Assembly (NCBI RefSeq): GCF_045037415.1
Contig: NZ_CP173438.1
Direction: 5' to 3' (one strand)
From: Escherichia coli
Lineage (GTDB): Bacteria; Pseudomonadota; Gammaproteobacteria; Enterobacterales; Enterobacteriaceae
DNA: 64,000 bases
A program made the position numbers. This document shows, piece after piece, positions 36,701 through 39,700 of the stretch; positions within the stretch are counted from its first letter, which is position 1, and every line of letters starts with the position of its first letter.

Positions 36701-39700
36701 AACGTTCATCCAGAATAAACTTTCCCGGTCCTGTGGCAATTGGTTATTTGTTGCATCAAGAATACGCAAGGTATTCTCTTTTTTTCCCTTCATCGCAAAC
36801 AGAGGAGGCGTCACGATAAAACGACCATCCTTTACACCATCGGCATTTTCCACCCATGATTGAATTAAATAGGTGCTATTTTCATCATTATTTGTCACGG
36901 CAAGTTGCACTTGTTTTTGCCCTGCCGGATAAATTACGCGAGTCGCACCTAAGGCCACTCCCGCTTCAGCGCGTCCGGCAACCATCATTGCCATGAACAT
37001 CAGGATACCTGCCAGCAAGCAGAATGTTATTTCCTGCGATTTCCTTACATTGACGTTTTTATTACTCACTGTCCTGTTCCTGTTATCACATTATCTGCTG
37101 AACAATTACTGATAGGTTAAAGAGAACCAGGCCTGTGCATTGGCGATGCCGCCAGTAACCCGACGCCCGGTAGCACGATATTTGGCGATGAAATGTAGCG
37201 AAGTAGAGCCTGAGTAAAGCCGTTTCCAGTTTGCTGGAGGACGATTAATCGGTACGAGGTTTCCTTCATCATCAAACAACGCTACGCCAATATTGGTGGC
37301 TATCCCTGGCCCCTCTCCCACGGAAAGCACATCCGGATTTTTACCATCCGCGACACCGTGAAACGCCACACCCACACGTTCACTCACCACCGTGCTACAT
37401 TCCCGTAAATGAATAACAAAAGGCACCGGTGCGCTATCTTCCCCTACCGCGTGAAACCGGTTACTGCTGATTTGCCCCATATTGACCGTCATTTGTTTAT
37501 CACCAGCTTCAATCCGGCAAGTTTCCGCAATAATGACGCCCTGAAATTGCATATTTCCGCCGGGCAGCGTGGTATTCCATTTATTTCCGGCCAGAGCAAA
37601 CATTGGCAGCAACGACGCTAATAGAAATAATCTCTTCCTTTTCATCGTTATTTTTATCACACAAGGGTGGGCATCCCTGCCCGTAATGACGTCCCTGAAC
37701 CTGGGTAGGTTATTGATACTGAACCTTGAAGGTCGCATCCGCATTAGCAGCACCCGGGGTTGCGGCACCGGTTGCAAAATAACGCGCCTGGAACGGAATG
37801 GTGTTGGTTCCGTTATTCAGGGTTGTTTCTGAACTAAATGTCGCACCGTCCAGCGCCAGCGCAGCACCCGTTCTGTCCAGGATCTGCACACCAACGTTTG
37901 TTGCGCTACCCGCAGCTGAACTCTGCAGAGCCAGTACATCAGTATGCGTAGCATCAATTGCCGTACCTAAGAAGGCAACAGCGGCTTTTGTGGCAACAGT
38001 GGTATCGCAATCATTCAGCTGAATGTTAAAACCAACGGCAGAGCTGGTTGCTCCAGCCTGCTTCAGGCTAGCGGTACGAACCTGGCCTAACTGAACGGTT
38101 TGATCAACAGAGCCTGCATCAACTGCGCAAGCGGCGTTAACAACTTCCCCTTTAAAGTGAACGGTCCCACCATTTACCGTCGTAGTATCGGCCAGAGCCG
38201 CTGCGGAACTGAGGGACAGAGCCGACAGAACAACGATTGCCAGAGTTTTAATTTTCATGCTGCTTTCCTTTAAAAAACTATTTCTAAATCGACATGGGCA
38301 GTCGTTCTGTACACTTTGTTTTGTCAACGAGTTTGACTGCCAACACTGCACAGTTTTCCCCCAAAAGATGAAACATTTGGGGCCATTTTGACTCATAGAG
38401 GAAAGCATCGCGGACAAACTTTTTCAGTTTATTTGTTGGCTTAATATTCTATTGTTATCTTTATTTATAGATGTTTATATTGCATGAGGTGGTTTTTGGA
38501 GAGAAGAATGAGGAAGATGCGTCGAGCCACAGAAACGTTAGCTTTACATATAGCGGAGGTGATGTGAAATTAATTTACAATAGAAATAATTTACATATCA
38601 AACAGTTAGATGCTTTTTGTCGTTTTTTAATATTTTTATGCTTGAGAAAAATACGTAACTTATTTATGATATGGACAGTTTGGCCCCAATTGTCTTGTAT
38701 TTATTTGTTTTTTAACTTTATTATCAATAAGTTAAATCAAACCTCTTCTCTTTTTAATTTTTCGTTTATGAGATTATTTCTTTCCCATAATCCGGCAAAA
38801 CGAGCAGCATTACTGGCGGTATAACGCACAGTATGGCGAATATTTCGATGCCCGAGATAATCCTGAATTAAACGAGTATCTGCACCACGCTCCGCCAGTT
38901 CATAACCGCAAGCATGCCTTAACATATGAGGATGAGTCTGCGTTACGGTTCCAGCTTCAATACCGGCATCGCGAATAATGCGATAGGCCTGCTGGCGAGA
39001 AAGCCGACTCCCGCGGCGAGAAATAAATATAGCGTCAGTCCGGTCAGCGCCTTTCCAGTTAGCACGTTCCTGGGTCCAGCGTTCCACGGCTTCACGCTCA
39101 TCAAAACGTAACGGGTGAACGGTAGAAAATCCGTTCTTCAGTCGGCGAATATTTATTCTACCTTCATTAAGGTCAAGGTCCTGATAATGCAGATCAAGCA
39201 GTTCACTAATACGCATCCCATGCCGATATGCCAACAGAATAAGACAATAATCTCTGGCTCCCGTTGCCCCGTAACAAACCGCCTGCATCATGGCCTGAAC
39301 TTCTTTACCGGTAAGATAACGACGTTTACTCACAATAGTAGTACTCCTAACTGAGATATATTTGAATGAATACCTATAGGAAACCTCAATCGGTCAAAAT
39401 TAGCCCAATAGATAAAAAGATAACCACACACGGAGTGATGTGGCTATCAGTCAATTACATTAAATATCATACAAAAATAAAATATCACTGATGTGACAAC
39501 ATCTATTTTCATTGATTTGATTCAATATAACAATAGATTGCAGTGGATTAACTTCCAGTTGCTTAAAAAATAAAGAAAAAAGTGCGGAAACAGGAGAATT
39601 TAAGTGATGTGTAAATTTATGAATGATTTTGTTTATTTATTTTGAAGAACATAAACCATTGTATTTTGTATGGATATGGTTAACTTAATGTTTATTATGA

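Follow-up and report, generated by a model that had tools for sequence, protein, structure and literature searches.

The segment between fimE and fimA in the 64-kb stretch of Escherichia coli DNA analyzed here (hereafter, the window), spanning positions 38377 to 38689, can be confidently identified from its sequence as fimS, the invertible promoter switch of type 1 fimbriae, and the agreement of three independent references supports the assignment of this switch to the phase-OFF orientation. Considered jointly, the evidence makes it almost certain that this is the promoter switch of fimAICDFGH, that it is OFF in the assembly and that fimA is left promoterless, most of the cultured cells being presumably afimbriate. 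The element is already known, and it is found here in its ordinary OFF state in a well-described lineage; given that the fim switch is textbook phase variation and that sequenced E. coli are OFF by default, the locus reveals nothing new on mechanism. It marks the window as belonging to a fimB::ISEc55 lineage of the ST131 clade C/Nissle 1917 type, and in strains with this insertion type 1 fimbriation, a key bladder-colonization factor, turns on slowly. The features on which these conclusions are based are collected in Table 1.

Table 1. Features of the fim switch region in the window (positions are those of the 64-kb window; an empty strand cell indicates a feature given without a strand).
Feature	Position	Strand	Remarks
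fimA, type 1 fimbrial major subunit gene	37710..38258	-	predicted to be cut off from its promoter in this orientation; NCBIfam FimA
fimS invertible element	38377..38689		313 bp including both 9-bp repeats; assigned to phase OFF
IRR, fimA-proximal 9-bp inverted repeat	38377..38385	+	TTGGGGCCA
HinfI site GACTC	38390..38394		near fimA-proximal repeat; used in published orientation assays
Unique BstUI site CGCG	38409..38412		close to IRR, as in an OFF switch; diagnostic site in published orientation assays
Lrp-consensus-like site	38437..38451		13/15 match; ~50 bp from IRR
IHF consensus match, expected IHF-2 position	38596..38608	+	inside fimS; WATCAANNNNTTR, exact
PfimA (predicted)	38642..38670	+	-35 TTGAGA 38642-38647, 17-nt spacer, -10 TATGAT 38665-38670; 10/12 match
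IRL, fimE-proximal 9-bp inverted repeat	38681..38689	-	reads TGGCCCCAA on the + strand
IHF consensus match, expected IHF-1 position	38722..38734	+	just outside IRL; exact
fimE, intact tyrosine recombinase gene, 198 aa	38737..39333	-	identical to K-12 FimE; NF007371 profile 1-198/198
fimB 3' fragment, codons 67-200	39811..40218	-	NF007370 profile positions 66-200/200
ISL3-family insertion sequence disrupting fimB	40219..42103	+	1885 bp; ISEc55 in the literature, 'ISEc53 family' in RefSeq
fimB 5' fragment, codons 1-66	42104..42303	-	fimB is cut after codon 66

The fimS switch has been defined as an element of approximately 314 bp that includes the 9-bp inverted repeats 5'-TTGGGGCCA (PMC8777976, PMC2647292). 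The element in the window is 313 bp long, carries exact copies of these repeats separated by 295 bp, and is located between fimE and fimA, directly upstream of fimAICDFGH. The 9-mer occurs in exactly two copies in the entire 64-kb window, one on each strand, and these are IRR and IRL. Taken alone, this pair is not statistically remarkable: at least two matches of this type were reached in 16 of 100 shuffles, and the AT-rich 700 bp around fimS contain several further perfect 9-nt inverted pairs. Because of this, the evidence for fimS is drawn from homology and from natural inversions. Beyond the 9-bp core, the complementarity of IRR and IRL, albeit imperfect, reaches 22 nt, which is in keeping with recombinase half-sites that flank the repeats (PMC9993118).

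The homology is extensive. The fimE-fimS-fimA region aligns with that of MG1655 at 99% mean column identity, with a lone 1-bp gap within fimS, and the sole difference between the two switches is one A/T that is absent from the promoter spacer in the window. The fimS elements of MG1655 and UTI89 share with the window the 9-bp repeats, the location relative to fimE and fimA, the promoter hexamers, the IHF positions, the BstUI and HinfI sites and the orientation, but differ in length (314 vs 313 bp), in the spacer (18 vs 17 nt) and in having an intact rather than a split fimB. The 601-bp segment from 38200 to 38800 is 100% identical to the corresponding segments of many E. coli chromosomes, including those of O25b:H4-ST131 strains and of Nissle 1917, and in these matches it sits between the annotated fimE and fimA genes. 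The switch of O157:H7, which is locked as a consequence of a deletion in fimS, shares the OFF orientation, the repeats and the promoter hexamers with the window but is missing a 16-bp stretch that precedes the -35 hexamer and is retained here. An Rfam scan gave no match at the switch, and no evidence contradicts the fimS identification.

Natural inversions were sought by building the ON form in silico and searching it against complete E. coli genomes. AH20J067 and OZ040963 match this form along the full 601 bp with 100% identity, and the ST131 strain JJ1887 carries it with two 1-bp gaps; given these inverted matches, the breakpoints fall within the 9-bp repeats, so that the same element is found inverted at precisely these repeats in other natural genomes. 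A preliminary description of this DNA had delimited a 313-bp element by 9-bp inverted repeats, and this delimitation is borne out by the exact repeats, the near-identity to the MG1655 switch and the existence of naturally inverted forms.

The arrangement of potential regulatory sites is also that of fimS, at the level of sequence matches only. Of the two known IHF sites, IHF-1 is adjacent to IRL and IHF-2 lies within fimS (PMC9993118), and exact matches to the IHF consensus are present at both of the expected positions. In the OFF switch, a Fis site located at a distance of 50 bp from the right-hand repeat overlaps LRP-2 (PMC9993118), and the Lrp-consensus-like site inside the element probably corresponds, judging from its position, to these overlapping Fis/LRP-2 sites. 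An intrinsic terminator scan of the switch, which is blind to the Rho-dependent fimE terminator in fimS, detected no terminator.

A promoter scan of the region yielded 3 sigma-70-like matches compared to 1.9 +/- 1.6 expected by chance. The top match, TTGAGA-N17-TATGAT, agrees with the consensus at 10 of 12 positions and occupies, inside the element, a position homologous to that in K-12 and UTI89, so it is the predicted fimA promoter; the two weaker ones each match at 9 of 12. The predicted promoter adjoins the fimE-proximal repeat, with the end of the -10 hexamer 10 nt before IRL, and would be directed at fimE, away from fimA. The same hexamers, separated by an 18-nt spacer, are present in MG1655, UTI89, O157:H7 and others. 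Assigned by consensus and homology rather than by transcript mapping, these hexamers are presumably those of the fimA promoter mapped by Olsen and Klemm (1994). No statement of the PfimA hexamers or spacer was found in the literature searched: PMC9096935 does not give the hexamers, and a search for TATGAT together with fimA returned primers only. As had been proposed initially, the best promoter match is thus on the plus strand and reads out through the fimE-proximal repeat; the accompanying claim that no comparable promoter faces fimA stands as far as the best match is concerned, but has to be qualified in that a weaker, 9/12 match on the minus strand does face fimA.

The orientation of the switch can be read against published standards. 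In the ON state PfimA faces fimA, whereas in the OFF state it is disconnected from this gene (PMC2647292); the UTI89 reference genome carries fimS in the OFF state (PMC6458436). In the fimE-to-fimA direction, the alignments of the window to the MG1655 and UTI89 references are both collinear across the whole switch. In the published assay, PCR with primers OL4 and OL20 gives a 726-bp product that is cut by BstUI into 539 and 187 bp when the switch is OFF and into 433 and 293 bp when it is ON (PMC9993118). Both primers have exact matches in the window, delimiting an amplicon of 725 bp in silico, and digestion of this amplicon yields 187 and 538 bp, whereas inversion of 38386-38680 in silico yields 432 and 293 bp. 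The 1-bp shortfall relative to the published sizes reflects the length of the element, 313 instead of 314 bp. Both signs of the OFF state, namely a predicted promoter beside IRL that points toward fimE and a BstUI site near IRR, are found in the window. An in silico HinfI digest, for which an OFF pattern of 359 and 200 bp is expected, gave 357 and 200 bp for the window as found and 75 and 482 bp for the inverted form, a result that we consider to be supporting only and secondary to the BstUI assay. The initial assignment to phase OFF is in agreement with the comparison to reference sequences as well as with the orientation PCR and asymmetric digest, the latter performed in silico only; instead of placing the promoter at the fimA-proximal end, the alignments to UTI89 and MG1655 support OFF.

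The fimA-facing match, TTGATA-N18-TAAATT, located inside the switch on the minus strand from 38601 to 38572, leaves room in principle for a reading in which the orientation is really ON and this sequence, or another one elsewhere, is the true fimA promoter. We regard this match as chance, given that the number of matches found is within the chance expectation. In addition, the BstUI pattern is the published OFF one, the collinear UTI89 reference is published as OFF, and about 95% of the assemblies are oriented alike, in line with shaken cultures being afimbriate by default. The ON orientation is refuted by the published diagnostics, namely the BstUI pattern and the collinearity with UTI89, and was rejected; its probability appears to be negligible.

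With the OFF orientation of the consensus accepted, its meaning for the culture has to be considered, given that an assembly is a single consensus sequence and captures only the orientation that prevailed in the sequenced culture. The possibility that the culture was substantially mixed, and that the assembler chose one of the two forms arbitrarily, appears unlikely. The fimS switch is heterogeneous in cultures, where both read orientations coexist (PMC6458436), and the two 1-bp gaps in the ON copy of JJ1887 suggest a messy consensus at this locus, but the sequence of the window is clean, with many independent assemblies matching it at 100% identity, a low ON fraction is expected in ordinary culture when fimB is inactive, and even in a mixed culture the consensus mirrors the majority.

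Of the two linked recombinases, FimE is complete and does not differ from that of K-12, whereas fimB, although present, is cut after codon 66 by the 1885-bp ISEc55 element, in agreement with the original view that fimB is disrupted and fimE is intact. The insertion sequence carries a gene of the ClbS/DfsB family (40318-40836) and a transposase gene (40855-42075; ISL3 transposase in NCBIfam), and its terminal repeats start with GGGTCTTCCCC. On the minus strand, the gene order is fimB'-IS-'fimB, fimE, fimS, fimA, I, C, D, F, G, H. The annotation of an O25b:H4 genome lists, on the minus strand, fimH-G-F-D-C-I-A, fimE, and fimB as two pseudogene pieces around an ISL3-like element, and a 12.6-kb stretch of the window is 1 nt apart from this genome. 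Insertion of ISEc55 in the fimB gene of ST131 strains has been described previously (PMC4584265, PMC3203889, PMC7671891), and a near-identical fimB insertion in Nissle 1917 was reported by Totsika et al. (PMC3203889); over 9.6 kb, the window and the fim region of Nissle 1917 share 99.96% identity, which confirms this similarity. The fimB::ISEc55 haplotype, represented by the ST131 clade C strains EC958 and JJ1886/JJ1887 and by Nissle 1917, has the same insertion site, the same insertion sequence with the ClbS/DfsB gene, and the same FimE and FimA as the window; essentially nothing differs at the fim locus, with the exception of JJ1887, in which the switch is assembled ON. The IS-split fimB is a known natural variant and constitutes no argument against the assignment of the element to fimS.

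In the mechanism expected from what is established for this system, tyrosine recombinases at the half-sites flanking each repeat would cut and rejoin the DNA inside the 9-bp repeats, and IHF and Lrp would shape the switch DNA; inversion cannot occur without IHF, and the direction in which it proceeds is biased by Lrp and Fis (PMC9993118). FimE strongly favors the ON-to-OFF direction (PMC9993118), such that it would turn the switch from ON to OFF almost exclusively, and FimB would normally be responsible for most of the OFF-to-ON switching. From the ON-to-OFF drive of FimE together with the loss of FimB, it would follow that a population in which fimB is split by ISEc55 rests yet more firmly in the OFF state. 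In this state, PfimA, located beside the fimE-proximal repeat, would fire toward fimE, leaving fimA promoterless and the majority of the cultured cells afimbriate, and a Rho-dependent terminator inside fimS would shorten and destabilize the fimE transcript (PMC9993118, PMC2647292). In the OFF orientation, PfimA would also be expected to give rise to an antisense transcript that enters fimE at its 3' end; no paper on such transcription was found in the literature searched. Without FimB, OFF-to-ON inversion could proceed through weak FimE activity or through an unlinked recombinase such as FimX/IpbA (PMC3203889), the gene for which is absent from this window. Strains with the fimB::ISEc55 insertion switch slowly from OFF to ON, and expression is still inducible in them (PMC3203889, PMC4584265, PMC7671891). 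The preliminary view of OFF as the expected resting state when fimB is disrupted and fimE is intact is in accord with both the bias of FimE and this slow switching.

A more radical version of this bias, in which the loss of FimB has left the switch dead, that is, permanently locked OFF, so that type 1 fimbriae are never made, has to be weighed given the disruption of fimB, the strong ON-to-OFF bias of FimE (PMC9993118) and the OFF orientation in 405 of the 406 genomes with the same insertion. The 9-bp repeats and their flanks are nevertheless intact and identical to those of invertible alleles, FimE is intact, and the window has no deletion like that of O157:H7, in which the absence of 16 bp locks the switch (PMC6458436). 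Furthermore, JJ1887, a strain with the same fimB::IS haplotype, was assembled ON, and two carriers of the insertion, EC958 and Nissle 1917, produce type 1 fimbriae once they have been grown statically (PMC3203889, PMC4584265). A permanent lock thus appears very improbable. Because JJ1887 is ON and EC958 and Nissle 1917 become fimbriate after static culture, we conclude that the switch in the window is not locked, and residual OFF-to-ON switching is expected.

A survey of the complete E. coli genomes, 5426 in number, puts these observations in perspective. Among the 4721 genomes with a match, orientation was counted when at least 80% of the query was covered, resulting in 4456 OFF and 248 ON switches (248/4704 inverted). 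OFF is the default state in assemblies and is not diagnostic of the fimB lesion, because the OFF share of approximately 95% includes strains with intact fimB, MG1655 and UTI89 among them. The junction between fimB and the IS was detected in 406 genomes. Extension of the ON query across this junction left JJ1887 as the sole full-length match, and in the other ON genomes the match ended at the insertion point. The ON orientation was accordingly found in 1 of the 406 fimB::IS genomes compared to 247 of the approximately 4298 others (Fisher odds ratio 0.04, p = 4e-9), a contrast to be read with the caveats that the genomes are not phylogenetically independent, since it is based on essentially two clonal lineages, and that it is confounded by culture conditions and by the inclusion of locked-OFF lineages, such as O157:H7, among the comparison genomes. 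The single ON switch among 406 is consistent with a bias toward OFF that is stronger when FimB is lacking, and the survey can be viewed as a small, independent, genome-level echo of the published slow-switching phenotype.

The only slightly unusual detail of this fimS is the 17-nt spacer of the predicted promoter. The A-run of the spacer consists of five instead of six A's, and this one-base difference accounts for an element length of 313 bp instead of 314 bp; in addition to MG1655 and UTI89, the 18-nt spacer is present in an O157:H7 genome, an O102:H6 genome and strain S163-2. No mention of a 313-bp fimS was found in the literature searched, and a search for Nissle together with fimS returned nothing on a 1-bp deletion. 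The shorter spacer may strengthen PfimA and may be an adaptive or compensating trait of the fimB-null haplotype of Nissle 1917 and ST131 clade C, in which case cells would rarely turn ON yet would express fimbriae strongly once ON; we consider this a doubtful proposition. The exact 86-bp promoter segment was found in 442 of 4684 genomes (~9%), a number close to that of the 406 fimB::IS genomes (the two sets were counted separately), and the 17-nt allele also occurs alongside an intact fimB, in AH20J067.

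The fimA promoter within fimS, the invertible switch of type 1 fimbriae (TTGAGA-N17-TATGAT, 38642-38670 on the plus strand), has a spacer of 17 nt in the window compared to 18 nt in MG1655, UTI89, O157:H7, O102:H6 and S163-2. Given that the A-run in this spacer is one base short, the window's fimS measures 313 bp, whereas the canonical length is 314 bp. The 86-bp promoter segment is matched exactly in only 442 of the 4684 complete genomes.

Among the 406 genomes in which fimB is interrupted by ISEc55, fimS was assembled in the ON orientation only once, in the ST131 strain JJ1887 (NZ_CP014316.1; positions 5001-5599 of L004, our designation for this strain). 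Compared to the window's fimS inverted in silico, the JJ1887 copy shows two single-base gaps: one lies beyond the fimA-proximal repeat, in the C-run, and the other abolishes the HinfI site. Errors in the assembly of a heterogeneous locus may account for both. Over 12.6 kb of the fim region, the sole difference between the window and the near-identical O25b:H4 genome NZ_CP015085.1 is at position 32336 (A in the window, G in NZ_CP015085.1); this position is inside the fimH coding region, so that the two fimH alleles are one base apart.

Features located in the window
Feature	Coordinates	Strand	Remarks
SymR antitoxin sRNA	9097-9173	-	Rfam RF01809, 83 bits
A-run in the fimA promoter spacer	38648-38652		
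Gene for a ClbS/DfsB-family four-helix-bundle protein (by annotation)	40318-40836		passenger of the ISL3-family element in fimB
2271-bp insertion	49085-51355		not present in the otherwise near-identical NZ_CP015085.1

ClbS is the protein family of colibactin self-resistance; the NCBIfam search of the window gave no match for the passenger gene. The 2271-bp insertion is a group II intron encoding the LtrA reverse transcriptase/maturase, with an Rfam Intron_gpII match at 51269-51355, and is located within a copy of the IS3-like ISEc52. Compared to an intact copy found elsewhere in ST131 genomes, the window contains an extra T at 50364, which breaks ltrA up into a pair of ORFs that overlap each other (49741-50385 and 50357-51265). 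SymR adjoins a region that is annotated as symE in the near-identical O25b:H4 record; close by, that record also has a locus for type I restriction-modification and the toxin-antitoxin pair BrnT/BrnA.
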